Of a DNA stretch of 64,000 nt, positions 1 through 15,774 are shown in pieces. The notes beneath the pieces were generated by a model. It was given only the letters and a program-made list of their open reading frames with translations, did not search any database and was not told the DNA's origin. Origin of the DNA: Candidatus Azobacteroides sp. GTDB lineage: Bacteria > Bacteroidota > Bacteroidia > Bacteroidales > Azobacteroidaceae. A program made the position numbers and the translations under genes. The stretch is taken from assembly GCA_009783445.1 (NCBI GenBank), contig WRFY01000124.1:2171-66170 (forward strand), given 5' to 3'. Numbering within the stretch: the first letter of the stretch is position 1; every line of letters begins with the position of its first letter.

Positions 1-84
1 CATTGCAAAATCAACCAACTCATCTTTAGACGCCGGCCATGGCGCATCTTCTAATTTTGAAGCTAATTCTAATGTCCAGTACAT
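1..84 (-). CDS. DUF2795-like small protein; only the N-terminal 28 codons are present because the gene runs off the window start
   Basis: Minus-strand ATG at 84. Translation is MYWTLELASKLEDAPWPASKDELVDFAM. The P-x-SKDEL-hydrophobic signature recalls DUF2795. Confidence 0.4.
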   Translation of the reverse strand, partial: MYWTLELASKLEDAPWPASKDELVDFAM

Positions 85-242
85 AATTTCAAATTTTTCG
101 CAAATGTAGAAAAAAATCATTTATATACAAGGTTTCTCCCTTGTAATTTCATCCGTATAGCATTTGTTTTTTAAGGTACTATTTGGAATTTGAAGAATCA
201 ATAGGACTACTATTTTTCTATTACAAATAGAATTCATTTCGT

Positions 243-791
243 TTAGTAGTTGTAAAATACAGATATTTCATCGGTGTTATGAATAAAACTTTGTTTCCGC
301 GACAACAAAAAGAAATAATCCGATAACCGATTGATGTATTTAAATAACAGAGGATCCAATTGGGAAGATTCGTCAATTTGATAAATCATTCTTTCCGCCC
401 GCCGGCAAATGGTACGGCATACATGCGACAGAGAATTGCTTTTGCATCCCCCTGGCAACACAAACGTTTTTAAGGGCGGTATTAAATCTTCGATCTTATC
501 CATTTCTTCTTCCAATCGATAAACGTCTTGCTCAGAAATGCCGCAACCTGTTTTGCTTGCCTCGGTAGCCAAATACGACCCCAGCGTAAAAAGATTGAAC
601 TGGATTTGCAAGAGAAGTTCCCGGTCGTCTCGGTTATTGATTTCATCCAATAAACAAGCCATGAACGAATTAAGTTCGTCTAATGTGCCGTAAGCTTCAA
701 TTCGGGGATTGGTTTTTGGAACTCTTTTTCCTCCGACCAATGAAGTGTAACCTCCGTCGCCCGTTCGTGTGTAAATTTTGCTTTTTTCCAT
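243..791 (-). CDS. pduO: ATP:cob(I)alamin adenosyltransferase, PduO type
   Basis: Track ORF 243..836 trimmed to the internal ATG at 791 (MEKSKIYTRTGDGGYTSL...). The N-terminal TRTGDGGxTSL motif and the size (about 180 aa) are typical of the PduO/MMAB family. Confidence 0.85.
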   Translation of the reverse strand: MEKSKIYTRTGDGGYTSLVGGKRVPKTNPRIEAYGTLDELNSFMACLLDEINNRDDRELLLQIQFNLFTLGSYLATEASKTGCGISEQDVYRLEEEMDKIEDLIPPLKTFVLPGGCKSNSLSHVCRTICRRAERMIYQIDESSQLDPLLFKYINRLSDYFFLLSRKQSFIHNTDEISVFYNY

Positions 792-2256: not shown

Positions 2257-5200
2257 TCAACGGTTTCGTCCTCCCCGCGGTAATTTTTCATTCCGTGCTT
2301 GGAATCGTTCCATACTTCTTGAAAAGTCGGGAGAATATTTATCAAATTTTTCAGAATCGTTTTCCGCAAAATAGTACAAAATATTTTGCATAAAAATCAA
2401 ATCTCTTTTTACATCTTCCAAAACACTGCCGTATTGATTTCTATCCAAACGAGTATACCAATTTAGATTTTTGTCGGATATTTCGGCCAGTTTTGTATAC
2501 AATTCGTCGGCTTTTTCTTTTTTTCCAATTTTATGATAGACGTCAGCCAACTCTCCAATGGAAAAATAATCGTAAGGCACATTGTAAGAAGGGATGGCTT
2601 CCAAACAACGATCGGCTGCTTTTTCCGCTTGTTCAAATTTGTTCTCTTCCACTAATTTTTTTGCCAACTGACCGAAAATGATGCGGAAAGTCCGCGCCAT
2701 CCGCATGCAGTTTTCATCTAAGTACAGCCCCGGCTGCTGCAGATTGCCCCATTTATACTTGTTCATCAGATTATCGTAAAGTACATCGGAATTAATTCTC
2801 TCGTAACGCGCTGCTTCAAAAGGCATAATGCGGTAACCCACTCCGTCTTGCCGGAAATAAGGATCCAACCTCATGTATTGATCCGAACCTACAGTGATGG
2901 CAAAATACATGGGACGCGACCAATCGGCATTATTTTTCAGCATTTCCAGAATCATCATTTCCGGCTTGCTCAAATATTTTTTCGGACGGGTCGTCGGTTC
3001 TCCTTTTTCATTGGGCTGGTCGCCAAAATCCAACACAAGGTAAGGATGCAACCAATCGGCATTCTCCGGTTTTACTAATCCGGAACGAATGATTGCGGCT
3101 GAATCTACCGGAATGCTGATCTTATAAGAAGGAACATTATCCAATTCGAAAGCATATCCCGGAAGAGTTTTATCGCGCGGATCATCCGATTTGATTCGTT
3201 TCAATACTCGGTCGACGGGGATAGGGCCTTGCTCCTCATTGAGAATATACGCTACATCGTGTTTGCCCTGTACGTATTCGTATTTTTTCCAGCTAATGGG
3301 AAGCGGCTCCGATTCGTAGGCCTGCCGTTTCATCTGGTCAATATACCAATCCGTTTGCAAATAACTCAAGTTGCAAACGCGAACATCCGTCCGGTATCCT
3401 TCCACTTCCTGGGAGTACCACAAGGGAAATGTATCATTATCGCCATTGGTGAAAATAATGGCATTGGGTTCGCAAGTACTCAAGTAATTCATACCGAAAT
3501 CACGGGTAAGAAACCGGCCTGATCGATCATGATCGTTCCATGTTTGGGAGGCCATCTGCACCGGTATCAGTAGGCAAAGAATGCTACCCAATACAGCCGA
3601 CGGAATCTTGGGCAAGCGAAGGTATTTATTTATTCCCTTAATAACTCCGGCGGTACCGATTCCTATCCAAATACAGAACGCATAAAACGAACCGGCGTAC
3701 GCATAGTCCCGCTCCCTTGGCTGGTAGGGCGTTTGATTTAAATAGACGACAATCGCCAAGCCCGTCATGAAAAACAAGAAGAAAGTCACCCAGAATTGTT
3801 CTGCTCCCTTTTTACCGGCGTATACTTGGAAGAAAATACCTAAAATTCCTAACAACAAAGGAAGCATATAATATTTGTTGTGTCCCTTGTTTTTTGCAAT
3901 GCTGTCCGGCATATCGTCCTGCGGACCAACTAATTGTTGATCAATCCATTTGATGCCTGTAATCCAATTGCCATTGGAAACTTCTCCGTTTCCCTGTATA
4001 TCATTTTGCCGTCCGGAAAAATTCCATAAAAAATAGCGCCAATACATGAAATTAACCTGATATTCGAAAAAATAGCATAAATTTTCTCCGAACGTGGGTT
4101 TGTATACCCATTTGCCGCCATTGGGAGTAGATACCCGCACACGGGTTCCTTTAAAGTTCGACCACTCCTTATATCCTTGCATATAACGCGGATCCGAATT
4201 ATTATACATACGAGGAAACAAAGTATTCAATTCATCGGTATAGATATATTGCCGTCTGCGTCCGGATTCGTAATAGTGATCTTTTTCCGATGGGTCTTTT
4301 TTGGGTACTTGCGTCCAGATCGGACCTTCGTCTTTCATAGCTGCTTCCAGCATGCCCCCTTTTTCTTCGTATTTTACTTCGGAGACAAAAGTTGGTCCGT
4401 AAAACAAAGGCGTTTCGCCATACTGTTCGCGACTCAGATAGGTTCGCAATGTAAATATATCTTCGGGCGAATTCTGATCCATCGGCGTATTGGCCATGGA
4501 ACGGATCACGATTAACGCATAGGAAGAATAACCGATAGTAATAACGAGCAGTCCGAGCAATATGCTGTTCAATGATACCATATTGATTTTTTTTACCGCA
4601 AACAGGAAAACAATCAACGCCAAAATAATGCAGATGCCTATACCCAAGCCATTCCCGAGAAAGGGAATTCCCAACAAAGTGATGGCAATGATAAAAGCAA
4701 TTTTGGCTCGTTCCGGTTTTTGAGTGGGATGCATCGTTTCCCAAATAGCCCACGACAAGACGCCTAAAATAAGCAATAGATAAAACAGGACTCCCGAATT
4801 GTAAGGCAGAGAAAATACATTCACAAATAATAATTCGAACCATCCGCACACTTCGACCAATCCCTGTACTAATCCGAAAAGAATGCCGATCATAATTCCG
4901 AAAGATATCAGCAATGCGATCAAAGCGCCTTTCCATGTCGGTTGGTTTGTTTTACGGAAATAATAGACTAATACAATGGCTGGAATGCAGAGCAGATTCA
5001 ATAAGTGAATAGCGATGGAAAGGCCCATCAGGTAAGCAATCAGGATCAACCATCGGATAGAATAAGAATCATCGGCGACTTCTTCCCATTTCAGGATCAA
5101 CCAAAACACAATGGCAGTCATAAAGGAAGAAAAAGCGTATACTTCGCCTTCAACCGCCGAAAACCAGAACGTATCGGAGAAAGTATAAGCCAAAGCGCCT

Positions 5201-5580
5201 ACCGCACCCGCTCCCCAAATGGAAATCATTTGCGCTGCCGTCATCGTCTGTTGTCCATCAGGACAAAGAAGTTTCTGCATCAGACGGGTAATCGTCCAAA
5301 AAAGAAAAAGAATCGTTAAGGCGCTAAAAATAGCAGACAAAGCATTCAACATTTTTGCTACCTGCGAAGGTTCGGATGCCAAATGAGAAAAAAGATTACC
5401 CATTAACATGAAAATAGGCGCTCCGGGTGGGTGGCCTACTTCCAATTTGTATGCGGATGAAATAAATTCGCTGCAATCCCAAAAACTTGCCGTCGGTTCG
5501 ATTGTCAATAAATAAACAGTGGCCGCAATGGCAAAGATAACCCATCCCAACACATTATTCACCAATTTGTATCTTTTCAT
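2257..5580 (-). CDS. DUF2723 / GT117-type polytopic membrane glycosyltransferase-like protein
   Basis: 1107 aa with many TM segments. The N-terminal TIEPTASFWDCSEFI...GHPPGAP motif is typical of DUF2723, and the C-terminus is TPR-like. Confidence 0.8.
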   Translation of the reverse strand: MKRYKLVNNVLGWVIFAIAATVYLLTIEPTASFWDCSEFISSAYKLEVGHPPGAPIFMLMGNLFSHLASEPSQVAKMLNALSAIFSALTILFLFWTITRLMQKLLCPDGQQTMTAAQMISIWGAGAVGALAYTFSDTFWFSAVEGEVYAFSSFMTAIVFWLILKWEEVADDSYSIRWLILIAYLMGLSIAIHLLNLLCIPAIVLVYYFRKTNQPTWKGALIALLISFGIMIGILFGLVQGLVEVCGWFELLFVNVFSLPYNSGVLFYLLLILGVLSWAIWETMHPTQKPERAKIAFIIAITLLGIPFLGNGLGIGICIILALIVFLFAVKKINMVSLNSILLGLLVITIGYSSYALIVIRSMANTPMDQNSPEDIFTLRTYLSREQYGETPLFYGPTFVSEVKYEEKGGMLEAAMKDEGPIWTQVPKKDPSEKDHYYESGRRRQYIYTDELNTLFPRMYNNSDPRYMQGYKEWSNFKGTRVRVSTPNGGKWVYKPTFGENLCYFFEYQVNFMYWRYFLWNFSGRQNDIQGNGEVSNGNWITGIKWIDQQLVGPQDDMPDSIAKNKGHNKYYMLPLLLGILGIFFQVYAGKKGAEQFWVTFFLFFMTGLAIVVYLNQTPYQPRERDYAYAGSFYAFCIWIGIGTAGVIKGINKYLRLPKIPSAVLGSILCLLIPVQMASQTWNDHDRSGRFLTRDFGMNYLSTCEPNAIIFTNGDNDTFPLWYSQEVEGYRTDVRVCNLSYLQTDWYIDQMKRQAYESEPLPISWKKYEYVQGKHDVAYILNEEQGPIPVDRVLKRIKSDDPRDKTLPGYAFELDNVPSYKISIPVDSAAIIRSGLVKPENADWLHPYLVLDFGDQPNEKGEPTTRPKKYLSKPEMMILEMLKNNADWSRPMYFAITVGSDQYMRLDPYFRQDGVGYRIMPFEAARYERINSDVLYDNLMNKYKWGNLQQPGLYLDENCMRMARTFRIIFGQLAKKLVEENKFEQAEKAADRCLEAIPSYNVPYDYFSIGELADVYHKIGKKEKADELYTKLAEISDKNLNWYTRLDRNQYGSVLEDVKRDLIFMQNILYYFAENDSEKFDKYSPDFSRSMERFQARNEKLPRGGRNR

Positions 5581-5780: not shown

Positions 5781-6431
5781 TCACTTTTCTTCTTTTACAT
5801 TTCCTTCCGCATCCGCTGTAAAATTAAATTTAAGATAAGATATTTCTGTCCCAAGCCCTCCGGATTTAGCTGTCGTTCTTGATCCCTGACGACTTTCAAT
5901 GGTAAAAGAATGAATGATTTTCGACGGATCGGCGTTTACGATAATGTCATACGTTCTTATTCCGGAAAATTCATTTTCTGATTCTTCAACCATTTTTCCC
6001 GCTTTGTTGACATTAGAGGCAATTTTTGAAAAATCAATTTCACTTAATTTCAATACATCTTCGGGCTTAACCGTAGGAGTATCGGTATCATCATCCACGT
6101 ATTTTCCGAGAGTTGATCTTTCTTTTCCTTCGGAATTACTGCCCAAAGTAATGTATTTACATTTTACGGTATTCGAACCGGATTCGAAGTAATAGACTTG
6201 GGCTGATGTTACCGTTTTGGAAAAGTTGTCTCCTGTTCCCGCGGATCCGAGAGAGATTTCGATAATTTTGGCGTCGGAACCGACAAATTTCTCAATCTTT
6301 GAACGCAAATTGTCATCAATGTCTTTTTGGTTAGTAATATCAATTCCGAAAAGACCGCTGCATGAATGCTGTGTCAACGCTGTTGCAACTACAACAGACA
6401 ATAAAAGAATTGTACGCAAATGTTTCTTCAT
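5781..6431 (-). CDS. hypothetical lipoprotein, last gene before the terminator
   Basis: Signal peptide with a lipobox-like Cys (LTQHSCSG). No family recognised. Confidence 0.6.
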   Translation of the reverse strand: MKKHLRTILLLSVVVATALTQHSCSGLFGIDITNQKDIDDNLRSKIEKFVGSDAKIIEISLGSAGTGDNFSKTVTSAQVYYFESGSNTVKCKYITLGSNSEGKERSTLGKYVDDDTDTPTVKPEDVLKLSEIDFSKIASNVNKAGKMVEESENEFSGIRTYDIIVNADPSKIIHSFTIESRQGSRTTAKSGGLGTEISYLKFNFTADAEGNVKEEK

Positions 6432-6547: not shown

Positions 6548-7063
6548 TCATCGTTTCAACCATCCAAAAAGGACTTTTAGCAAACGCTCTTTTTTCAACA
6601 AAACAGTGGCGTTTCCCTGCATAGAAGGATAATAAGAAATGATTTTACCGCTGGATAAACGAAGATTGTCTTGCAAATTAACCTTAGCTATCAAATATTT
6701 ACACCCTTCTTTCCTGACAACGACAGAGTCTTTTTTTTCAATCCGACCGAAGAGCTGTCCGTATTTGTTTTTGTTGTAGCCTTCTATTTCAATCATAACA
6801 GATAACCCGAGTTCCATTTTTGACTGTAAGGCAATGGGAATTTCAATTATTGCGCCATAAGCAGAATTTTCCATGGGAACAATGTACGCAGTTGCTTGAA
6901 CAGTTTCGGTGTAGGGGAAGAAGTAACTTCCAATAATCAATAAAGTGAACACAACAAATAAAACAGTAATGCCGCTGCGTACTACCAATGGAGGCATTTT
7001 CCCTATGATCGACCGTACTTTCTCACTTCTTAATTCTATCGAATCCATATTTTCAATTTCCAA
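6548..7063 (-). CDS. short HlyD-family membrane-fusion-like protein lacking the coiled-coil hairpin
   Basis: The N-terminus (ELRSEKVRSIIGKMPPLVVRSGITVLFVV, one TM) is typical of bacteriocin-exporter HlyD partners in Bacteroidota. It is only 171 aa, and its start overlaps the ABC gene stop by 11 nt. Confidence 0.6.
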   Translation of the reverse strand: MEIENMDSIELRSEKVRSIIGKMPPLVVRSGITVLFVVFTLLIIGSYFFPYTETVQATAYIVPMENSAYGAIIEIPIALQSKMELGLSVMIEIEGYNKNKYGQLFGRIEKKDSVVVRKEGCKYLIAKVNLQDNLRLSSGKIISYYPSMQGNATVLLKKERLLKVLFGWLKR

Positions 7064-9293
7064 GTTCCAACTGATTCTTAACTAAATAATAATAAGCTCC
7101 TTTACTTTTTATTAATTCCTCATGAGTGCCGATCTCTATTATCTCTCCTTTGTCTAATACAACTATCTGATCGGCATTTTTTACCGTACTTAACCGGTGG
7201 GCCACTACCACTACTGTTCGTCCCTGATAAAATGCATTCAGATTTTCAATAATCATTTTTTCATTATTAGCATCCAAAGCATTAGTTGCCTCATCCAGAA
7301 AGATAAATTGAGGATTGCGATAGACGACCCGTGCAATCAGAATGCGTTGTTTTTGCCCATAGCTCAATCCCTGTCCTTCCTGACCAATAATGGTATTGTA
7401 TTTAAGGGGCAGTTTTTCAATATGATCTTTAATATTTGCAATCGTTACCGCATTTTGCAGTCGTTCTAAATCAATATCTTCATCGTTTACTGCCACATTG
7501 CGAGCGATGGATTCGGAAAAAATATAGCCATCCTGCATCACCACTCCACATTGCTTCCTCCACCAGTGAATATCGATGTCCTGCAAATTCTTATCCGCTA
7601 TGTTTATTTGCCCTTCGGTAGGCGGATAGTACCCTAAAAGCAGTTTAATAAGTGTTGTTTTTCCACTTCCGCTTGCCCCGACAATAGCAGTTACTTTTCC
7701 TTTAGGTAGAGTAAGATTAATGTTATTCAATGCTTTAGGAGAATAAGGTCCTTCATATTGAAAAGCGAGATTGCTTATATGAATATCTTCGCCCTGATAC
7801 AACTCCAAAGCGTCTTTCTCCGCATCTTCTTCATTTTTTTTGACATGTATCTCACTGATACGTTCCAAACTGATGCTTACATCCTGCCATTGGTAAACAA
7901 AGTTAACTAACTGTTCTACAGGACTATTCAATTGTCCGATAATATATTGTACCGAAAGCATCATCCCCAGTGTAAGTTGTCCGTGGATGACCGATGTAGC
8001 CGCCAGAATAGTGATGACAATATTTTTCAGTTCATTGATGGCCATAGCTCCTGCTTCCTGTGTCTGTTGTAACGAGAGCGTATCAAGATTGACTTTGAAC
8101 AAATCGGCCTGCACATCTTCCCATTCCCAACGTTTGCGTTGCTCGCACCCTTGCAGCTTAATCTCCTGCATCCCATTAATCAACTGGTATACCTTACTTC
8201 GATTTTTTCCCTCCTGTTCAAAAACTCGGTAATCGAGCATTCGCCTGTGCTTCAGGGAAAGGAGTATCCATACGGCATAAAGAACCGTGCCAATGAAAAA
8301 CACCAGAAAGATTCGCAAATCGTACAATAATAAAACAATGCCAAAGATTAGCAAACTGAAAAACGAAAAGAGGACATTGAGGCTTTGCGCTGTGAGGAAA
8401 CGCTCCACCCGGTTATGATCTTCGATGCGCTGAAGCAAATCGCCCAACAGTTTGGTATCGAAAAAGCTCATCGGGAGCTTCATCAACTTGATAAAGAAAT
8501 CGGAAATAAGTGAAATATTAATACGGGCGCTGATGTGCAGCAAGATACGACGCCGAATAAAATCAACTGCAGTATGTCCGAAGAGTAACATTAACTGTGC
8601 CAGCAAGATAAGATAGATAAAGCTGATATTTTGGTTGGCAATTCCCGTATCTACAATGGCCTGCGTAAGGAAAGGGAAAAAGAGCTGCAACAGACTACCC
8701 AACAATAACCCCAACAGAAGCTGTCCGAAAAGCTGACGATAAGGTAAGAAATAATTGCTCAAGAAGCGAAAACGATTACGAGTAATAATCTCTCCTTCCT
8801 GTCGATAAAAGGCTTCGGTAGGCTGTAATATCAATGCGACTCCTTTCTCTTCTCCACATGATCGCGTACTAATCCAATTATCACAAAACTCTTGCTCACT
8901 GTACTGCAACAAGCCTTTACCCGGATCGGCGACTTTAACTACATATTCTGCCATTGCAGACTTGACCCGTAATCTCCATTTCTTTTTGGAAATTTCATAT
9001 ACCACTACAAAGTGATTCTGCTGCCAATGAACGATGCAAGGCAGCGGAGCTTTTTCTGTTAATTGTGTAAAAGTAAATCTACCACCCACCGTTCGAAAAC
9101 CGATTTCTTCGGCTGCTTCGCTTATGCCAAGCATGGATACGCCTTCGCGGGAAAGATGCGATTTTTTCCGCAAACCTTCCAACGAATAGCGGCGACCATA
9201 ATAGGCCGCGACCATGCGCAGGCAGGTGGGTCCGCAATCCATGACATCGAGCTGGTGGAAAACAGGGAAGTTATTCATGGAAAAATTTCTCAT
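7053..9293 (-). CDS. peptidase C39 domain-containing ABC transporter (peptide cleavage/export permease-ATPase)
   Basis: N-terminal C39 motif QLDVMDCGPTCLRMV, a six-TM ABC membrane domain, Walker A GASGSGKTT, signature LSYGQKQR and Walker B FIFLDEATNALD. Confidence 0.9.
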   Translation of the reverse strand: MRNFSMNNFPVFHQLDVMDCGPTCLRMVAAYYGRRYSLEGLRKKSHLSREGVSMLGISEAAEEIGFRTVGGRFTFTQLTEKAPLPCIVHWQQNHFVVVYEISKKKWRLRVKSAMAEYVVKVADPGKGLLQYSEQEFCDNWISTRSCGEEKGVALILQPTEAFYRQEGEIITRNRFRFLSNYFLPYRQLFGQLLLGLLLGSLLQLFFPFLTQAIVDTGIANQNISFIYLILLAQLMLLFGHTAVDFIRRRILLHISARINISLISDFFIKLMKLPMSFFDTKLLGDLLQRIEDHNRVERFLTAQSLNVLFSFFSLLIFGIVLLLYDLRIFLVFFIGTVLYAVWILLSLKHRRMLDYRVFEQEGKNRSKVYQLINGMQEIKLQGCEQRKRWEWEDVQADLFKVNLDTLSLQQTQEAGAMAINELKNIVITILAATSVIHGQLTLGMMLSVQYIIGQLNSPVEQLVNFVYQWQDVSISLERISEIHVKKNEEDAEKDALELYQGEDIHISNLAFQYEGPYSPKALNNINLTLPKGKVTAIVGASGSGKTTLIKLLLGYYPPTEGQINIADKNLQDIDIHWWRKQCGVVMQDGYIFSESIARNVAVNDEDIDLERLQNAVTIANIKDHIEKLPLKYNTIIGQEGQGLSYGQKQRILIARVVYRNPQFIFLDEATNALDANNEKMIIENLNAFYQGRTVVVVAHRLSTVKNADQIVVLDKGEIIEIGTHEELIKSKGAYYYLVKNQLELGN

Positions 9294-9308: not shown

Positions 9309-11666
9309 TCACAAACGATTTATATCGTCCAATGCCGCATTCGCTCCTCGGTATTGCTTCTTGTAATTATTGAACTGGTAACGAATGGTGAGAAGCAAAG
9401 CGCGTGTTTCGTATTTTGTCATTTTTGTATAGGAAACGGTATTGACTCGCACATCTATCCGATTATTTATCCAGTTGAATAAATCAGTTACTTGCAAATT
9501 AGCCAATAGTTTTTTATTGAAAAAATATTTTCGCAATCCGATCTCAATCGATTTCATCTCGTTCGTCTCTATTGCATAGTTATTCATTTTTCCTTGATAA
9601 TTCAGATTCAAGGAAAAAATATATTTTCGAGGAAGAACAAATTCATTATTGATGCTGCAAAAAAATACCGTTCGATTTCGGCTTTGCTCTTTCCCCAGAT
9701 AAGACAGATTGAAGAAAGGTTGGCTCACGCCGACTGTCACTTGCGTTTGACCGAATTTGTATGGAACATCGCCTGTTAAAAGGAAATCTAATTTTTGATA
9801 TTTCGGGTAATTGACGTAGGTCATAACTGTTTGGGACGAATTTTGTTCCGAATCTTCAATGGTAAATCCAATTGGATGATTTACGTAGGTATAATCCAAT
9901 CGAAAATCCAATATTCGATAATGCAGATGGTAATCGAATAGATACATATCTTCCGAATTGAGCAGGGGATTTCCTCTTTCCCGCAGGAAACGATTCACGT
10001 AGTAGTCTTCGCTACTGAGCAGAGAAAATGCAGGACGTTGAATCTTTCGTGCCATTTCCAATCCCATTTGCGTGTTTCCAACTATTTGAGAAATGGAAAG
10101 ACTCGGATAGAATCCGCTATAATTTCGATCTATTTCTACTTGGCGAGCGCTGTCGATAGTCGTTAAAGCCTTTGTCCATTCGTACCGCATCCCTATTTGA
10201 ATTGCCAGTTTACCGAATTGTCTACTATAATTTGCAAAACCAGCGACTTTATTTTCTTTATTTGTGTAAAAGTTGTCAGCTATATATTGTTCCGGATTTA
10301 ACAGAAAACCTGAACCTTTCACTTGATTACATTCTCCGCCAAATTCCAAGCTTGATAGTTCGTTCAAACGGTATTCCAAAGTAAATTTTCCTGCATATAG
10401 ATCGTAATTCGAACGACTGTTAAGCGTCAGTTCTCTGTTTTCTACTGATGAGGACTCCATTATTTCCTGTCCGGTTTTATTATGGGTTTTCAAGTAATCC
10501 ACATCCAAACGCAAACTAAACGATTTTCCATAATCTCCCTTATAAAAAGCGTTTAGCAGATGTTTTTCAGGCTGGCTTTTTGCCTTAAAAAGGGTCGTGA
10601 TTTGGTCGTAATTTTGAGCGTTAGCCCAAACGGTCTGAATTCCGGAAGAATTGATTTTTTCGTTTCCAAAAGTATACTGATATTGGCATCCAACAGCCTG
10701 CCGAGTCGTGACAGACCAATCGATTCCAGACGTAAAAACAGTTGATAAATCTTTATGTTTCTGAGGCATTTCCATTTTTTGCAACCAAGTTGTATCCGTA
10801 TAAACAACATAATCGGTTACTGTATTCCATCGCGTTTTTTCCCGAGTATGATTGCAGGAAGCAAAGAAAACAAAATTAGGGAGTGCATAGCTTAATTCGA
10901 AATCCTCCATGCTACTGAAATATTTCCGTTTCTCAACTTGCTGAGAGATTTGAACGCTCCAACCATCTTCCCCGCTTCGTTTGGTTTTGATCAGTAAAAC
11001 AGCTCGCCCTTCTGCATCGTATTTCGCACCCGGATTTGTAATTAACTCAATACTAATAATATTAGTTGAAGATAGACGATTAAGCTCGGTTTTATCGTAC
11101 AATTTTCGGTTGTTGATGTAAACAATCGGCGTTCCTTTGCCAAAAACAGTTATTTCATCTTCATTTATTGTAACGCCCGGAATTCGTTTGATAACATCGT
11201 TGGCATTGCCCACAGAGGCTAACAAAGAAGAATTGACATGAACTATCCAGTTGTTTCCTATTTTGGAAAAAACGGGTTTAGGCGTTGTTACTACAATTTC
11301 GCTCAACAAATAGTTATCTTCTGTCAGCATAATTTCGCCTAATTCGATCGACTGTTGTTGTATGATTGTTTGCAGGGTGATTGTCTGGTAACCCAAACAA
11401 GCAATTTGCACAAGGAGTTCGCCTTGCTGAACATTTTCAAACGAAAATTCACCAGTTTCTGAACAAACAGTTCCATTAATAAAAGAAGAATCTGCTGCAT
11501 GGAATAAAATTACATTGGCATATTCTATTGGGATTTGTTTTTCGTTTACAACTTTGCCCGAAAGAGTTTGCGCATGAATCGCCATTTTGTTTCCAATGAA
11601 TAATAACAGCAGAATTTGCAGAAAATAAAATTGTTGTTTGCATACGAAATGATTAGTCATTTGCAT
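9309..11666 (-). CDS. outer-membrane beta-barrel protein, TonB-dependent-receptor-like, with an N-terminal carboxypeptidase-regulatory-like domain
   Basis: Signal peptide, a CarboxypepD_reg-like beta-sandwich (LSGKVVNEKQIPIEYANVIL), a plug-like segment (IKRIPGVTINEDEITVFGKG) and a long beta-strand-rich C-terminus ending in an aromatic-rich region. Its start overlaps the rSAM gene stop by 14 nt. Confidence 0.75.
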   Translation of the reverse strand: MQMTNHFVCKQQFYFLQILLLLFIGNKMAIHAQTLSGKVVNEKQIPIEYANVILFHAADSSFINGTVCSETGEFSFENVQQGELLVQIACLGYQTITLQTIIQQQSIELGEIMLTEDNYLLSEIVVTTPKPVFSKIGNNWIVHVNSSLLASVGNANDVIKRIPGVTINEDEITVFGKGTPIVYINNRKLYDKTELNRLSSTNIISIELITNPGAKYDAEGRAVLLIKTKRSGEDGWSVQISQQVEKRKYFSSMEDFELSYALPNFVFFASCNHTREKTRWNTVTDYVVYTDTTWLQKMEMPQKHKDLSTVFTSGIDWSVTTRQAVGCQYQYTFGNEKINSSGIQTVWANAQNYDQITTLFKAKSQPEKHLLNAFYKGDYGKSFSLRLDVDYLKTHNKTGQEIMESSSVENRELTLNSRSNYDLYAGKFTLEYRLNELSSLEFGGECNQVKGSGFLLNPEQYIADNFYTNKENKVAGFANYSRQFGKLAIQIGMRYEWTKALTTIDSARQVEIDRNYSGFYPSLSISQIVGNTQMGLEMARKIQRPAFSLLSSEDYYVNRFLRERGNPLLNSEDMYLFDYHLHYRILDFRLDYTYVNHPIGFTIEDSEQNSSQTVMTYVNYPKYQKLDFLLTGDVPYKFGQTQVTVGVSQPFFNLSYLGKEQSRNRTVFFCSINNEFVLPRKYIFSLNLNYQGKMNNYAIETNEMKSIEIGLRKYFFNKKLLANLQVTDLFNWINNRIDVRVNTVSYTKMTKYETRALLLTIRYQFNNYKKQYRGANAALDDINRL

Positions 11667-12990
11667 AATTAAGTATGTGTGCTAATGATTTTTTTGAATC
11701 ATAGAATTTATCCATTATATGATAAATACTTTTTTCTATTTCATTACAAGGACATAATTTATTCAAATTAGTTAAATTTTTTGAGGAGAATAATCTATAG
11801 CTACAAATTCCATAGCAAACAGGAAGCAGGTTACAATCTAAACACTTCTTATTATCAAAAGTAGCTTTATTTAGTTTCCTATACAACAAGTGGTCGTTCC
11901 ATTCTATTGTTCCATCTTTTGTTAAAACGCCATCCTCTATTTCCTTTTCAAAATTGACTGCATGACATTTGAATACTCTACCATCATAATTAATTATAGA
12001 TTGATAATATTTGTCGGCCGGACAAGCCAATGTATTCGTATGAATTATGGAATGAGTTCTTATTTCAGTGTTGAATCCTGCATTCTCAAATATTAACAAC
12101 TTCTGTCCAATTTCATCAAAGGATACTCTTTCTTGATCTTGGTCTATTTGCTTAATTAATACCATTATTTTTTTTCGAATATGCAAAGGAAATGATTCGA
12201 TAATATTCGTAATGGAATCAAAATATTCCTTGGTAAAATTAATTCTAAGAATTAATGTTTTAGGATTCAAATTTTCAGCTAATAATATAATGCTATTAAC
12301 AATTCTGTCATATGAATCGGTTGTATTTTTTTGATATCGAATCCTATTATGTATTTCTTTAGGCCCATTCAAAGTTATTTGAATGGATTGCATATTAATA
12401 TCTCTAAACAATGGCAACATTTTTTCATTTAAAAAATATCCGTTTGTTGTGATTTGAGATTCGAGAAATACATTGTTTAAGTCACAAAATTCTTTTGTTT
12501 TTTCGGAAATTGGTTTTAATATATTTTCATAACATAATAACGGTTCTCCTCCATACCAATTTAAGAAAAATGCAGATTTATTTTTTACTGTATTATTTAT
12601 GAATTTGATTGTTGCATTAACAGTTTCTTTATTCATTATGCCTTTACACCTATCTTCATAACAATACCAACAATTAAAATTGCAATTTAATGTAGGAAGA
12701 ATCATAAGCCAATATGAATCATTATTAAAAACTTCTTTCCGATTATGAAAAAGTAAAATATTTTTTATATTATTGTCAATTTCTATATCATTAATTATTC
12801 CTAATTTATGCATTGTGCTAAAAAAAACAGGTTCATCTGTTTTCGTCTTATTTAAGTTTTCTTTGTAAGATATTAGTTTATTGTACTTGTTATCTTCTAT
12901 CTTGAATAACATTTTCTTAAACAAATTAACCCCGACCACTATGCTATTATAGCTTTTAAAGTAATTATATTTACTTAATATATATCCCAT
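11653..12990 (-). CDS. radical SAM / SPASM-domain peptide maturase
   Basis: CX3CX2C cluster LNCNFNCWYC (encoded at about 12661-12690). C-terminal SPASM motifs C-x13-G-x4-C (CPADKYYQSIINYDGRVFKC) and CX2CX5CX3C (CLDCNLLPVCYGIC). ATG at 12990 is preferred over the track's TTG at 12996. Confidence 0.88.
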   Translation of the reverse strand: MGYILSKYNYFKSYNSIVVGVNLFKKMLFKIEDNKYNKLISYKENLNKTKTDEPVFFSTMHKLGIINDIEIDNNIKNILLFHNRKEVFNNDSYWLMILPTLNCNFNCWYCYEDRCKGIMNKETVNATIKFINNTVKNKSAFFLNWYGGEPLLCYENILKPISEKTKEFCDLNNVFLESQITTNGYFLNEKMLPLFRDINMQSIQITLNGPKEIHNRIRYQKNTTDSYDRIVNSIILLAENLNPKTLILRINFTKEYFDSITNIIESFPLHIRKKIMVLIKQIDQDQERVSFDEIGQKLLIFENAGFNTEIRTHSIIHTNTLACPADKYYQSIINYDGRVFKCHAVNFEKEIEDGVLTKDGTIEWNDHLLYRKLNKATFDNKKCLDCNLLPVCYGICSYRLFSSKNLTNLNKLCPCNEIEKSIYHIMDKFYDSKKSLAHILNYAND

Positions 12991-13007
12991 CTTCAACTTT
13001 TTATATT

Positions 13008-13098
13008 AGGAGCTGCTTCTAAATAAATCATCTATAATTTAATTTCATTTTAAAAGAAAATGAACTATATTTTATAAGATTAATTTCTGGCAGCTCCT
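13008..13098 (-). promoter_or_regulatory. extended imperfect stem-loop between the precursor gene and the maturase gene
   Basis: GC-rich 9-bp basal stem (AGGAGCTGC 13008-13016 / GCAGCTCCT 13090-13098). A roughly 14-bp AT-rich middle stem follows, then an apical 8-bp stem TTCATTTT/AAAATGAA. No U-run follows on the minus strand. Confidence 0.45.
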
Positions 13099-13211
13099 TA
13101 GTTATAAGATATTATACCTACTCATTTACAAAATGATACTTTAACATGATTTATCATTCTGAATCTAAATAAGTTTTAGAATATGAAATCATAATTGATC
13201 ATCAATCAGCA

Positions 13212-13382
13212 TTAACAATAAGTGCCTGATTTTGAACCACAATAGACTCCTGATTTACCGACAGCAGAATCATTAATCAATAAGGCAGACGCATCAACTC
13301 CTCCTATAAGTTGTTTTTTTTCTTCCTTTGTCAATACAATTTTCTTACAATTTTTCAAATTATTTATTTTATTTGTTTTCAT
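13212..13382 (-). CDS. RiPP/bacteriocin precursor peptide with a double-glycine leader (56 aa); not in the ORF track
   Basis: Hand translation of the minus strand gives MKTNKINNLKNCKKIVLTKEEKKQLIGG|VDASALLINDSAVGKSGVYCGSKSGTYC*. The leader is Lys-rich and ends in LIGG. It lies directly upstream of the rSAM/SPASM and C39-ABC genes. Confidence 0.8.
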   Translation of the reverse strand: MKTNKINNLKNCKKIVLTKEEKKQLIGGVDASALLINDSAVGKSGVYCGSKSGTYC

Positions 13383-13762
13383 TTCTCGATAAATTTTTAT
13401 GTTAATAATAATTTTATTGGCGAAACTTTCGCATTCATCGCGTCCAACAAGTTACCCAACCTTGTTGGGAACTTTGGAAAATCAATAATATTTCGTACCT
13501 TTACGGCGCCTTCTTGTGATTTTGCATTTATTATTTCGATTGTTATGTTGAATATAAACCTCGCAGGGAGGCTATTTTTGTTTGCAAATTAAGGGGGCGA
13601 GCCTTGCTTTGCCATAAACGACAAATTCGTTCGTTTACATTTGCAAAAATAGAAATAAAAAATGGAACAAAATCCAAATGTTTGAAATAGTTTGTGAGCG
13701 TACCGATTTCGTCCATCAGCGTAGCATTTTTATCCTGCCAATGTCATAATATGAATGATAAA

Positions 13763-14083
13763 TTATTTTTGGTTGAACAATAATTTCAATTTCTGCGTGT
13801 TCCTGACCGAAAAACAGAAAACTTTGTCTCCGGATAGTTTAACCTCTTTTCTCTTAAGATCAATGGACTTTATGTGATGCGTATTAATAATACATTGCCG
13901 GCTTATTTGGATAAAACAGTCCGGTAATTCCGAAAGTATTTTCCGTAATGATTTTACACAATGGAAAGAAGGTTCGTTTTCCATATAAAATGTACATAAG
14001 TAATCATTAACCTCAACAGCCAATAGCGACTCCATTTGAATAACACGTAATTCATTTCCATTTTTTACAGTGAAACAATTCAT
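13763..14083 (-). CDS. stand-alone LytTR-domain DNA-binding protein with no receiver domain
   Basis: 106 aa. The pattern (...LLAVEVNDYLCTFYM...KSLRKILSELP..FIQISRQCIINTHHIKSID...V.LSGDKVF.FS) matches LytTR domain spacing. Confidence 0.75.
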   Translation of the reverse strand: MNCFTVKNGNELRVIQMESLLAVEVNDYLCTFYMENEPSFHCVKSLRKILSELPDCFIQISRQCIINTHHIKSIDLKRKEVKLSGDKVFCFSVRNTQKLKLLFNQK

Positions 14084-14160
14084 AAATCCAATGTAAATGT
14101 TACTTCATTCATTCCCTGACTGAAGAGAGTTAAAAATGCAGAAGCGTGGGAATTATTCGT

Positions 14161-14309
14161 TTATCTAATTTGAGGTACGACCAAGCACCGCGCTAAAATA
14201 AACAGTTACCCCACGCTAAGCAGATATATACGTGAGGTATATATGCTAAGCATAGCGTTTATTCTGTTTATCCCTTAGCTAAAAAATTGGTCGTTCTCAA
14301 ATTAAGGAT
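14161..14309. repeat. long imperfect inverted repeat forming a hairpin of about 150 nt, possibly a structured leader RNA or a MITE-like element
   Basis: Outer arms are TTATCTAATTTGAGGTACGACCAA and TTGGTCGTTCTCAAATTAAGGATAA. Middle arms are GCTAAAATAAACAG and CTGTTTATcccTTAGC. Inner arms are GCTAAGCagATATATAC and GTATATATGCTAAGC around the loop GTGAG. Confidence 0.6.
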
Positions 14310-14757
14310 AAAGCAAAACGCTTCAATATGTTAATTCTTAATATTCATTTATTATTATCAAGAATTGTACGACAAACTTACATGAAAATTTGAAGATTTC
14401 CAAATGTATCCGGCAGCGATTCAGAAAGAAAAATTTGAAAAATAAAATACTGAAAATAAAAAGTTTGTAAAATTTGAAAAATAAAAAAAATTGCAGAAGT
14501 TAAGCAGCTTATTTTATTAATTTACTAATTTTCAGCACATTATACAATTTTCACAAGCTAAGAGCTTTTTATAAACCGACTAACATACTCCATCTTAATT
14601 TTTATAAAAAAACTAATAATCAATGAAATATGAAGATAAATTATCTAAAAAATGATGGAGTCGAGGTTTTTAGTAATTTAAATGTTGACCTGATACTCGT
14701 AGGATAGGTAAATCTCTCGCAAGAACAAGTTTTACACTTAATCTGACCTGTAAATTC

Positions 14758-15774
14758 TCAACTATTCTTTCTGTAAAGTGGAAAAAAATCTTTATTACTG
14801 TTTTTCCTTTTTTGCTCAAGACTTAAAGCCTCATAAATTTCCTTATTATGAATGTATTTCCATGCTTTGAATCGGAAACGGATGTCGGAAAAACGCGATT
14901 TGAAGTCGAAAAGCGAATCGTTTTTGCCATCTCGTCCCCCGCCCAAATGCAGGCAATGCATTTTCCGTCTTATTCCTTCTTTTCTCGCCTGATCCAGTAT
15001 CAGTTTGAGCGGACTGAATGATAGAAAATCGTTTCGCGTAGCATTCAAATGCGCTTGCATGATTCCATTGCAAAATGTGCAAAGCGAACCGCCAATCACT
15101 TCTCCCTTGTAAGCGGCTAAGAAAATGCAAGCATCCGCTTTTTTCAAAATGGCATTGAAGTACTCTGCAGGAAAATAATAAAATGGAGTCGCTTTGACTC
15201 GATCCATGTTTTCCCTATATATTTGGATAAAAGCGTTTACATCACTTTGATTGGAAGCCTTAAATACAGTTACTCCTTTGTTTTTCAAATAGTTGATTCT
15301 ATTTTTCAGCGAACGGGCATATTGTTTTTTCTGTTCAGATTCGGGCAAATCCAAATCTATCCCCACGGTCAGATTCATATCTTCGACCTCGCCCAAGCCG
15401 TCCAGCAATTGTTCTTGATTTTCCCATAAAGGATGCAAACGAGAAAAAACGCTTACGATTCGTTGGGCATCGAAATAATCTTTCAATGTTTCGTGAAACA
15501 AGCGAATATCGTTAAGAGTCGGGCGTTCGTTTTGCGACAAAGGGCCGACATAACCATACACGGAAGTGATGTCCTGCCACTCCGTTCCTTCAATTTTCCG
15601 TACAATGACAGGAAGTGCAAAAGAAGCGGTATCGTTCCGAAAATGCAGTAACAAAGCCTTTCCCGATAAATCCAATTGCTGATAAAAAGCCAAATGATAA
15701 AAATCGTAGGCATACATAGAGCGAATAATGTCGTTCCATTTTCTTTCGTTGTCCGCAGTAATTATTTCCAGCAT
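14758..15774 (-). CDS. FemAB-family / GNAT-fold acyl(aminoacyl)transferase-like protein
   Basis: 338 aa with a two-lobed GNAT-like pattern. It is translationally coupled to the upstream sugar-phosphate transferase (TAATG overlap at 15774). The family assignment is made from memory of similar Bacteroidales proteins. Confidence 0.55.
   Translation of the reverse strand: MLEIITADNERKWNDIIRSMYAYDFYHLAFYQQLDLSGKALLLHFRNDTASFALPVIVRKIEGTEWQDITSVYGYVGPLSQNERPTLNDIRLFHETLKDYFDAQRIVSVFSRLHPLWENQEQLLDGLGEVEDMNLTVGIDLDLPESEQKKQYARSLKNRINYLKNKGVTVFKASNQSDVNAFIQIYRENMDRVKATPFYYFPAEYFNAILKKADACIFLAAYKGEVIGGSLCTFCNGIMQAHLNATRNDFLSFSPLKLILDQARKEGIRRKMHCLHLGGGRDGKNDSLFDFKSRFSDIRFRFKAWKYIHNKEIYEALSLEQKRKNSNKDFFPLYRKNS

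Follow-up and report, generated by a model that had tools for sequence, protein, structure and literature searches.

In a 64,000-nucleotide stretch of Candidatus Azobacteroides sp. contig WRFY01000124.1 (the window), conservation and gene context mark a small minus-strand open reading frame (ORF) as a real, conserved coding gene that heads an operon. The genes that follow it, all on the minus strand, encode in order a radical S-adenosylmethionine (rSAM)/SPASM enzyme, a TonB-receptor-like outer-membrane barrel, an ABC exporter with a C39 peptidase domain, and a truncated HlyD-like adaptor. We give a probability of about 0.6 to the reading that the ORF encodes the precursor of an rSAM-modified, secreted RiPP (a peptide made on the ribosome and altered after translation), in which one thioether ring would form in each of two repeated units, the leader would be cut after GG28 and the core would be exported. 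The tandem Gly-x-Tyr-Cys ending of the peptide is probably the site at which the neighbouring rSAM enzyme installs cross-links.

The translation of the ORF, MKTNKINNLKNCKKIVLTKEEKKQLIGGVDASALLINDSAVGKSGVYCGSKSGTYC, agrees letter for letter with that given in the initial annotation, which had been made from the letters of the window and a list of its ORFs. The gene was there called unannotated, which holds for the ORF track then used but not for GenBank, where a metagenome-assembled genome (MAG) of Candidatus Azobacteroides sp. includes the peptide as FWF52_11010 (MCL1938910.1), a hypothetical protein. The leader described in the initial annotation, of the form L-x-x-x-E-x-K-x-L-x-GG, is present as L17-x3-E21-x-K23-x-L25-x-GG. 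This places L25 at -4, E21 at -8 and L17 at -12, as in double-glycine leaders, all three being invariant in the family described below; position -7 is Lys, not a hydrophobic residue. The core (VDASALLINDSAVGKSGVYCGSKSGTYC; computed monoisotopic mass of the unmodified form 2764.3047 Da) contains Cys only at C48 and C56, of which C56 is the final residue, and each closes one of the near-identical KSG(V/T)YC units that the initial annotation had pointed out. The units are separated by Gly-Ser and are identical at 15 of 18 nucleotides. By its size alone the ORF is unremarkable, the 19 kb around it holding 173 ORFs of at least 30 residues and the region having a G+C content of about 30%, and it is the conservation seen in related sequences that sets it beyond chance.

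A word-indexed protein search with the peptide alone returned only the peptide itself, and its relatives emerged from the neighbourhoods of the enzyme and then from alignment-based searching. There are about 125 relatives of the enzyme at E <= 1e-30, and the surrounding DNA was taken for those with 55-86% identity. A small ORF lies directly 5' of the enzyme gene in loci L109 (enzyme 79% identical), L022 (69%), L023 and L024 (64%), L108 (62%), L106 (57%) and L107 (55%), and every enzyme relative at 53-86% identity whose upstream DNA was available carries such an ORF, with a Lys/Glu-rich L-T-x-E-E-K-K-x-L-x-GG leader. P0127, P0128, P0131, P0132 and P0135 came from two further searches, one based on an alignment and one a full HMM search of 1.84 billion representative proteins, which brought the family to 12 distinct peptides with a shared leader and motif. 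Nine of these were read from DNA immediately 5' of either a homologous rSAM gene or an ORF that takes its place and is cut by the contig end, two are paired with an enzyme only indirectly, and for P0127 the genomic context was not obtained. The downstream enzymes, where identified, are 55-79% identical to that of the window.

All 12 peptides have an initial M-K, the block L-(T/S)-x-(E/D/V)-E-x-K-x-L-x-G-G and the C-terminal motif, while the 12-20 residues between block and motif can barely be aligned. The leader is the best-conserved part, with L17, E21, L25, G27 and G28 invariant. The repeat that the initial annotation had read as a site of cross-links is the conserved feature of the core, which is what a modification site would lead one to expect: in the 21 instances of the motif, numbered relative to the Cys (position 0), position -5 is Lys in 13, position -3 is Gly in 20 and Ser in 1, position -2 is Val, Leu, Thr, Ile or Ala, position -1 is aromatic throughout (Tyr 19, Phe 2) and position 0 is Cys in 20 and Lys in 1. 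The single Lys belongs to P0125, in which one repeat lacks the Cys and keeps G-L-Y. The motif occurs as two units in nine peptides and as one unit in three, and P0125 and P0128 have a single Cys. The emphasis that the initial annotation placed on the C-terminal position of the second Cys finds no support in the family: the last Cys is the exact C-terminus in seven of the peptides and is followed by 1-8 further residues in the other five, so a free C-terminal Cys is not required.

The initial annotation had staked its reading on a conserved small ORF in homologous loci and on a conserved frame with an excess of synonymous change. The ORF is there wherever upstream DNA existed, and in a codon comparison of the nine genes with DNA pS exceeds pN in 35 of 36 pairs; of the 34 pairs with an estimable dS, 33 have an omega below 1, though synonymous sites are near saturation. 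By these codon and residue patterns, selection preserves the leader and the G-x-[YF]-C units. The family, probably one of uncultured gut Bacteroidales, is rare. Searched with a profile, the 1.84e9 representative proteins gave 14 matches at E <= 0.001, ten of them small peptides of the family and four long proteins aligned in several short stretches; at E <= 8e-8 the matches were exclusively small peptides of this type. The sources are two MAGs, that of Candidatus Azobacteroides and another from NCBI, and a few JGI, ENA and Logan metagenome samples, for which an insect-gut origin is a guess from the organism name.

Directly downstream lies an rSAM/SPASM gene, in line with the rSAM-installed cross-links that the initial annotation suggested. 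Its start is the ATG at 12990 and not the TTG chosen by the ORF finder, in agreement with the family consensus and with GenBank MCL1938909.1 (445 aa). The enzyme has the three-domain architecture of CteB: an N-terminal domain resembling a RiPP recognition element (RRE), a core with the CX3CX2C motif (C105/C109/C112; Cys numbers here follow a 447-residue translation and are two lower in the real protein) and a seven-Cys SPASM domain (C325-x13-G-x4-C344, C385-x2-C388-x5-C394-x3-C398, C415). All of these Cys are kept in 16 of 16 relatives. Sequence inspection found no further Cys between residues 283 and 325, which would limit auxiliary cluster I to three protein ligands. A three-ligand auxiliary cluster I leaves, in CteB, an iron open for the substrate Cys. 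The rSAM core of the maturase also contains two conserved Cys outside the three cluster motifs, C155 (14 of 16) and C171 (16 of 16); CteB lacks a Cys at the site that aligns with C171.

CteB is also the closest solved structure by sequence (E = 1e-19 with the family profile) and by fold. The AlphaFold model of the maturase (mean pLDDT 83, pTM 0.79) consists of an N-terminal strand-and-helix domain, a TIM-like core and the SPASM domain, and its best match in the PDB was CteB (E = 3e-16, about 420-440 aligned columns including the N-terminal peptide-binding domain), with TigE, anSME, SuiB, SkfB and ChlB among those that followed. Among curated NCBIfam models, the highest scores were those of Clo7bot (TIGR04334; 157 bits), CefB (NF038107; 143 bits), TIGR04463 (142 bits) and the geopeptide maturase (115 bits), with 99.4 bits for PapB (NF047865; cutoff 340) and 69.5 bits for SCIFF (TIGR03974; cutoff 425). 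All lie far below their cutoffs, and the maturase therefore belongs to none of those families. The residues that line the active site of CteB ('catalytic site proximity' residues F112, F152, T186, S210, H363 and Q364; PMC10288494) align with Y113, Y148, T183, T208, H345 and A346 of the maturase, five of the six being identical or conservative, and at the same positions the residues of the sactisynthase StsB are Y, T, I, S, K and L. This match is a small piece of evidence suggesting CteB-like thioether chemistry. By sequence, fold and active-site residues, the maturase is nearest to thioether-forming maturases.

Substrate motif and enzyme clade change together, a pattern in these sequences that is expected of an enzyme-substrate pair. 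In a neighbour-joining tree of the enzymes, that of the window, P0002-P0010 and P0008 form one clade; all of its members with known context have the tandem motif, and the barrel gene is present in every one that is long enough to show it. The sister pair P0012/P0023 is associated with peptides of a single unit that end in G-I-[FY]-C-(C)-H, although here the pairing is indirect. The next clade, with enzymes 46-52% identical to that of the window, comes from Dysgonomonas sp. ZJ279, a human-gut contig, L115 and L027 and carries precursors in tandem, two or three in number, whose cores follow the pattern CSCTYY(D/N)xPS...GCSCxC. It is accompanied by an S41 peptidase, a glycosyltransferase and a LanC-like fragment (L001), has no barrel gene, and looks like another uncharacterised RiPP family. 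Relatives with 25-35% identity, which made up most of those found in a metagenome scan with the enzyme alignment (three were above 40%), adjoin GG-leader peptides that share Cys alone. One locus of such distant relatives, L053 (enzyme 32% identical), has tandem GG-leader precursors at 48..242 and 275..469 ending in TNIGYCGHTHSEDTNIGYCS and TNIGYCGHTHSEDTNIGVCM, so a repeated G-Y-C ending recurs outside the window clade.

These observations suggest the following maturation pathway. The Lys/Glu-rich leader (L-T-x-E-E-K-K-x-L-x-GG) would dock on the N-terminal RRE-like domain of the maturase, which would generate a 5'-deoxyadenosyl radical and remove a hydrogen atom from some residue of each G-x-Y-C unit. 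The carbon radical would then be captured by the thiolate of the Cys nearby, probably bound at the open iron of the first auxiliary cluster as in CteB, to give one small thioether ring per unit, two consecutive rings and a total mass change of -4.03 Da. The acceptor carbon could be the C-alpha of the Gly at -3, which would close a four-residue sactionine ring, a carbon of the adjacent Tyr/Phe (its benzylic C-beta or its C-alpha), or one in the aliphatic residue at -2. The initial annotation expected a C39 domain to process the GG leader, and the exporter encoded in the operon has one (Peptidase_C39, E = 1.5e-29) whose catalytic motifs are all present, MDCGPTCL for Cys, NHFVVV for His and ADPGKG for Asp; this peptidase-containing ABC exporter (PCAT) is predicted to cut after Gly28 and pump out the 28-residue core. 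The barrel encoded in the operon may then handle outer-membrane passage or re-uptake. The product would probably act as a narrow-spectrum antimicrobial or a signal.

Each candidate ring geometry has a precedent. A single rSAM enzyme makes the pair of consecutive four-residue sactionine rings on the tandem motif of the short core of streptosactin (GggB, a streptococcal 'GGG' RaS-RiPP; PMC13361665), and Cys-Gly sactionines are known in StsA and BlaA (PMC10288494). Thioether rings with one intervening residue occur in suisactin (QmpB; PMC13361665) and a thiomorpholine between adjacent residues in the enteropeptins (KgrC; PMC12395415), and both geometries fit x-Y-C. The precursors of suisactin and the enteropeptins differ from ours (a Lys-Gly-Arg motif, tailoring of Arg to N-methylornithine), as do the enzyme clades and the hosts, which are Gram-positive. 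Classical hairpin sactipeptides have their donor Cys in the N-terminal half and their acceptors in the C-terminal half, whereas both Cys of the window peptide lie in the last nine residues; among sactipeptide layouts only the non-hairpin streptosactin type is therefore possible. Streptosactin offers the best topological model for two G-x-Y-C units, although it comes from Firmicutes under Rgg/SHP control and no relationship between its enzyme and the window maturase was detected. The Cys of streptosactin is N-terminal to its acceptor, whereas in G-x-Y-C the Cys is C-terminal to every conserved candidate acceptor.

Several points weigh against the thioether pathway. Identity between the maturase and CteB is only 17-20%, so that functional transfer is weak, and the maturase falls far under every curated family cutoff (at best 157 bits against 600). 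The argument from an open site on auxiliary cluster I draws on general knowledge of CteB and carries over to the maturase by analogy. SPASM enzymes of similar fold also make C-C and C-O links, epimerise residues and form cyclopropanes, and TigE is the fourth-best fold match. A simple Cys-to-Gly model leaves the strict aromatic next to the Cys unexplained; with that residue invariant, the link may instead be to the benzylic carbon, or the chemistry one that is not yet described. The thioether chemistry and the cleavage at GG28 are both predictions from sequence. Finally, the adaptor of the window is truncated and the exporter of L023 is split into ORFs of 373 and 287 aa, so some loci may be decaying and non-functional, a reservation that also applies to the function of the copy in this genome.

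The last step of the pathway allows a different biological role, with either chemistry: the mature peptide would be no bacteriocin, and the producer would re-import it through the operon barrel as a quorum signal or a metal-binding compound. We consider this a possible, if unlikely, reading. Methanobactin operons encode their own TonB-dependent importer. The window has a receptor-like barrel of the 22-strand type between maturase and exporter, as does every G-x-Y-C clade locus long enough to show it, seven in number (L020-L023, L025, L106 and L107). It is absent from the sister clades, where the maturase or other tailoring genes lead straight to the exporter (L001, L116, L053). Small DNA-binding regulators flank the loci (a LytTR protein here, XRE/HTH_3 proteins in its position elsewhere), thiol and phenol side chains are good metal ligands, and no immunity gene was recognised. 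The barrel protein has a signal peptide, a CarboxypepD_reg domain and an OMP_b-brl_3 barrel, but its match to the Plug domain is non-significant (E = 0.088) and a TonB box was not demonstrated; a sequence search of the PDB and the NCBIfam models gave no match for it. It could equally be an outer-membrane exit duct that replaces TolC, which would fit the shortened adaptor. Cys consumed in thioethers could not bind metal.

A second alternative keeps the same precursor and operon but has the maturase act on the invariant aromatic residue, by a C-C or C-O link from the Tyr/Phe ring or beta-carbon, an aryl-sulfur Tyr-Cys bond, or an excision or rearrangement. It would amount to a new modification class, and we hold it to be doubtful. 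The aromatic is as conserved as the Cys (21 of 21 instances), no described thioether motif demands it, and the repeat of P0125 with Lys for Cys retains G-L-Y. The enzyme, moreover, stands outside all curated families, and its fold neighbours include SuiB (which forms a Lys-Trp C-C link), TigE and ChlB beside CteB. Against this, the affinities of the enzyme in sequence, fold and active-site residues are with thioether-forming enzymes, and across the wider enzyme clade the substrates have nothing but Cys in common. With Phe in place of Tyr in two instances, the phenol OH is dispensable and chemistry that depends on the phenol oxygen is excluded; the suggestion in the initial annotation of chemistry centred on the adjacent Tyr is slightly weakened in consequence. 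With the single-Cys members, these affinities, the Cys shared by the wider clade and the tolerance of Phe are the reasons for taking Cys as the probable reactive partner.

More specific variants of the cross-link were considered and rejected. A triceptide cyclophane needs a residue two positions after the aromatic to supply a beta-carbon, but no third residue follows the last Tyr where peptides end in Y-C, and in the first unit of the window peptide (Y-C-G) it is Gly; the cyclophane-family models XyeB, GrrM, YhhB and FxsB score the maturase weakly, at 33-67 bits against cutoffs of 310-450. Tyr excision of the splicease type does not fit a motif that reads Y-C and not Y-G, and the nif11-type maturase model gives 71 bits against a cutoff of 519. 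Mycofactocin-like C-terminal chemistry is at odds with the five peptides that have residues past the last Cys, and cyclopropylglycine formation of the TigE type with the Ala and Thr found at position -2. For a link from Cys to Asp or Glu (PapB, QhpD), acidic residues are common upstream, but their number and spacing are unconserved. The two alternatives can also be combined, with a new cross-link from Cys to the aromatic (for example a benzylic thioether that would close a seven-membered ring, or an aryl-sulfur bond) followed by re-import through the barrel; we regard this combination as distinctly improbable. If it is true, the family would be a new class of peptides for signalling or metal handling, confined to the Bacteroidales of insect guts.

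Unmodified double-glycine peptides exported by PCATs are common, and the window peptide has exactly the two Cys that a disulfide needs. Even so, we find it very hard to believe that the peptide is an unmodified or disulfide-bonded bacteriocin or pheromone and that the rSAM enzyme has another substrate. Wherever downstream DNA was available it carries the enzyme or an ORF in its position, and all enzyme relatives with upstream DNA have the peptide; the substrate motif covaries with the enzyme clade, and the N-terminal RRE-like domain of the maturase aligns with that of CteB. Since members with one Cys cannot form an internal disulfide, such a bond was rejected as a conserved feature of the family. 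That the ORF is a chance, untranslated one in AT-rich intergenic DNA, where small ORFs abound, is refuted by the synonymous excess and by the conservation of the start, the leader with its GG, the motif and the stop position among loci with enzymes only 55-79% identical.

The general kind of system to which the operon belongs, a GG-leader peptide of Bacteroidota with an rSAM/SPASM enzyme and a PCAT, is known from genome mining (PMC10352776; TIGR04149). Clusters of Bacteroidales with rSAM as the only tailoring enzyme, a GG-leader precursor, a PCAT, a membrane-fusion protein and an outer-membrane protein have been mined bioinformatically (PMC10352776), and the window operon shares with them the phylum, the small Lys/Glu-rich GG leader, the sole rSAM/SPASM enzyme, and the PCAT with adaptor and outer-membrane component; no characterised product is known for them either. 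It differs from them in the TonB-receptor-like barrel between maturase and exporter, and the G-x-[YF]-C motif is not described there (PMC10352776). Among curated models only TIGR04149 (GG_sam_targ_CFB) touches the peptide, at 18.2 bits (E = 0.0018, residues 1-51) and thus under its 25-bit cutoff; three of eight family members match it at E <= 1. A small GG-leader peptide beside an rSAM gene in a Bacteroidota genome, which is what TIGR04149 describes, is what we found here. The partner enzymes of the GG-Bacteroidales system, which we take to be TIGR04148 (rSAM) and TIGR04150 (pseudo-rSAM), are not among the 25 best NCBIfam matches of the maturase, and the operon has no pseudo-rSAM partner.

With the ranthipeptides (CteB/thermocellin, SCIFF, PapB/freyrasin), the system shares the closest structure and fold, the RRE, the rSAM core and the seven-Cys SPASM domain, and with CteB also a similar active-site lining and a substrate Cys as the probable sulfur donor. 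It departs from them in its precursor, which has two Cys at the extreme C-terminus as opposed to six Cys in 45 residues or CX3D repeats, and no acidic residue four positions after a Cys as in CX3(D/E) repeats, and in its Gram-negative export apparatus. The core has no SCIFF, CX3D or NxxC pattern, and does not match characterised classes, in line with the initial annotation, which did not recognise it from characterised sactipeptides, ranthipeptides or streptide-like peptides. The best-scoring curated families, Clo7bot, CefB ('Cys-every-fifth') and TIGR04463, are SPASM maturases of Cys-containing repeat peptides, but the window enzyme reaches only about a quarter of their cutoffs (525-600) and their Cys-rich repeats differ in kind; a literature search found no paper on their chemistry. 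Full-text literature searches on the motif, TIGR04149, termite rSAM RiPPs and PF14905 returned nothing on a G-x-Y-C motif.

The features of the operon and its flanks, together with the precursors of the clade at 46-52% identity, are listed in Table 1.

Table 1. Positions of the precursor gene, its operon and flanking elements in the window, and of tandem precursors in related loci (numbered within each locus)
Feature	Coordinates	Strand	Basis or remark
Precursor peptide gene, 56 aa	13212..13382	-	ATG-to-TAA ORF, 56 codons; stop codon 13214..13212
Leader, residues 1-28, ending GG (residues 27-28)	13382..13299	-	
Predicted core, residues 29-56, 28 aa	13298..13215	-	
Repeat unit 1, K43-S-G-V-Y-C48, first predicted modification site	13239..13256	-	motif instances in the family
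Repeat unit 2, K51-S-G-T-Y-C56, second predicted modification site and peptide C-terminus	13215..13232	-	motif instances in the family
Long stem-loop in the 220-nt spacer (13211..12991) between precursor and rSAM gene	13007..13099	-	fold of 12985..13215, z = -3.0
Stem-loop outer arm GGAGCTGC	13097..13090	-	
Stem-loop outer arm GCAGCTCC	13016..13009	-	
Radical SAM/SPASM peptide maturase, 445 aa	11653..12990	-	Pfam Radical_SAM and NCBIfam SPASM domain
Outer-membrane beta-barrel protein, TonB-dependent-receptor-like, 785 aa	9309..11666	-	Pfam matches, N-terminal sequence
PCAT, 746 aa: C39 peptidase, ABC membrane domain, ATPase	7053..9293	-	Pfam, NCBIfam
Truncated HlyD-type membrane-fusion protein, 171 aa	6548..7063	-	tblastn; weak TIGR01843 match
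Predicted lipoprotein, 216 aa, at the operon end	5781..6431	-	signal peptide ending ..LTQHSC
LytTR DNA-binding-domain-only protein, 106 aa	13763..14083	-	Pfam LytTR, E = 2e-12; 380 nt upstream
Inverted repeat, 190-270 nt upstream of the precursor start	13572..13589 and 13639..13652		
Three copies of AAAATTTGAA	14385..14486		
Precursors of the 46-52% clade, L001	5331..5918		
Precursors of the 46-52% clade, L116	4573..4941		
Precursors of the 46-52% clade, L115	~200..390		
Precursors of the 46-52% clade, L027	~2690..2884		

Beyond the exporter, the ORFs of 171 and 216 aa had no Pfam or NCBIfam match other than the weak HlyD match of the former. In a tblastn comparison the 171-aa adaptor matches, in one frame, residues 2-57 and 322-428 of the 434-aa HlyD of L106: the N-terminal membrane anchor runs on in frame into the C-terminal barrel, and the coiled-coil/lipoyl part of about 265 residues between them is absent. 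Its counterpart in L023 (9926..10306) has 126 aa and is 42% identical at the N-terminus. The short adaptor is either a natural 'mini-adaptor' or a product of gene decay. The predicted lipoprotein at the end of the operon has no family match and was not found in the related loci examined, and the operon contains no second rSAM-like ORF. L107 also encodes another GG-leader peptide, unrelated to the first, at 5372..5545, which is 3 kb downstream of its G-x-Y-C operon; the core of this peptide starts EKRCCCCACAGTSG.

Upstream of the precursor, the LytTR protein, which has no receiver domain, is a candidate regulator by its domain content and is not conserved in the other loci. In the AT-rich 600 nt upstream of its gene, three AAAATTTGAA copies occur 39-45 nt apart, two of them extended to 18 nt; they could be regulator binding sites or mere low-complexity DNA. 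Between the LytTR gene and the precursor lies an inverted repeat, CTATTTTTG TTTGCAAAT / ATTTGCAAA CAAAAATAG. Each arm holds a sequence like TAnnTTTG, presumably the -7 promoter box of Bacteroidetes, and the repeat may be the promoter or operator of the precursor operon. A sigma-70 promoter scan, whose coverage does not extend to Bacteroidota promoters, did no better on the window than on shuffles, and no terminator was found near the gene; an Rfam scan of the whole window gave no match. The stem-loop in the spacer is probably an attenuator or an mRNA-stabilising hairpin. A strong hairpin also follows the precursor stop codon in L023, L106, L107, L108 and L109, with unrelated sequences, and it fits the usual RiPP arrangement in which a partial terminator or stabiliser yields more precursor than enzyme transcript. 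The G+C content is 25-33% over 11000..15000, which includes the maturase, the precursor, the LytTR gene and intergenic DNA, as against 41.7% for the whole window, compatible with horizontal acquisition of that operon end.

What appears to be new in this system is the G-x-[YF]-C precursor family, the enzyme clade outside the curated maturase families and the barrel gene within the operon. Radical SAM/SPASM enzymes have repeatedly given new peptide cross-links, and new conserved substrate motifs are reliable pointers to new chemistry or topology. For the rSAM-plus-PCAT RiPPs of Bacteroidota, the papers found describe no characterised product, though such clusters are abundant in gut Bacteroidales (PMC10352776). 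The operon offers a compact test case, with one enzyme, a core of 28 residues and a four-residue motif that occurs once or twice, and the natural variants of the family (Tyr to Phe, Cys to Lys, single or double unit) amount to a mutational series. The clade-specific barrel and the shortened adaptor, in turn, bear on how diderm Bacteroidota pass PCAT-exported peptides across, or back across, the outer membrane.

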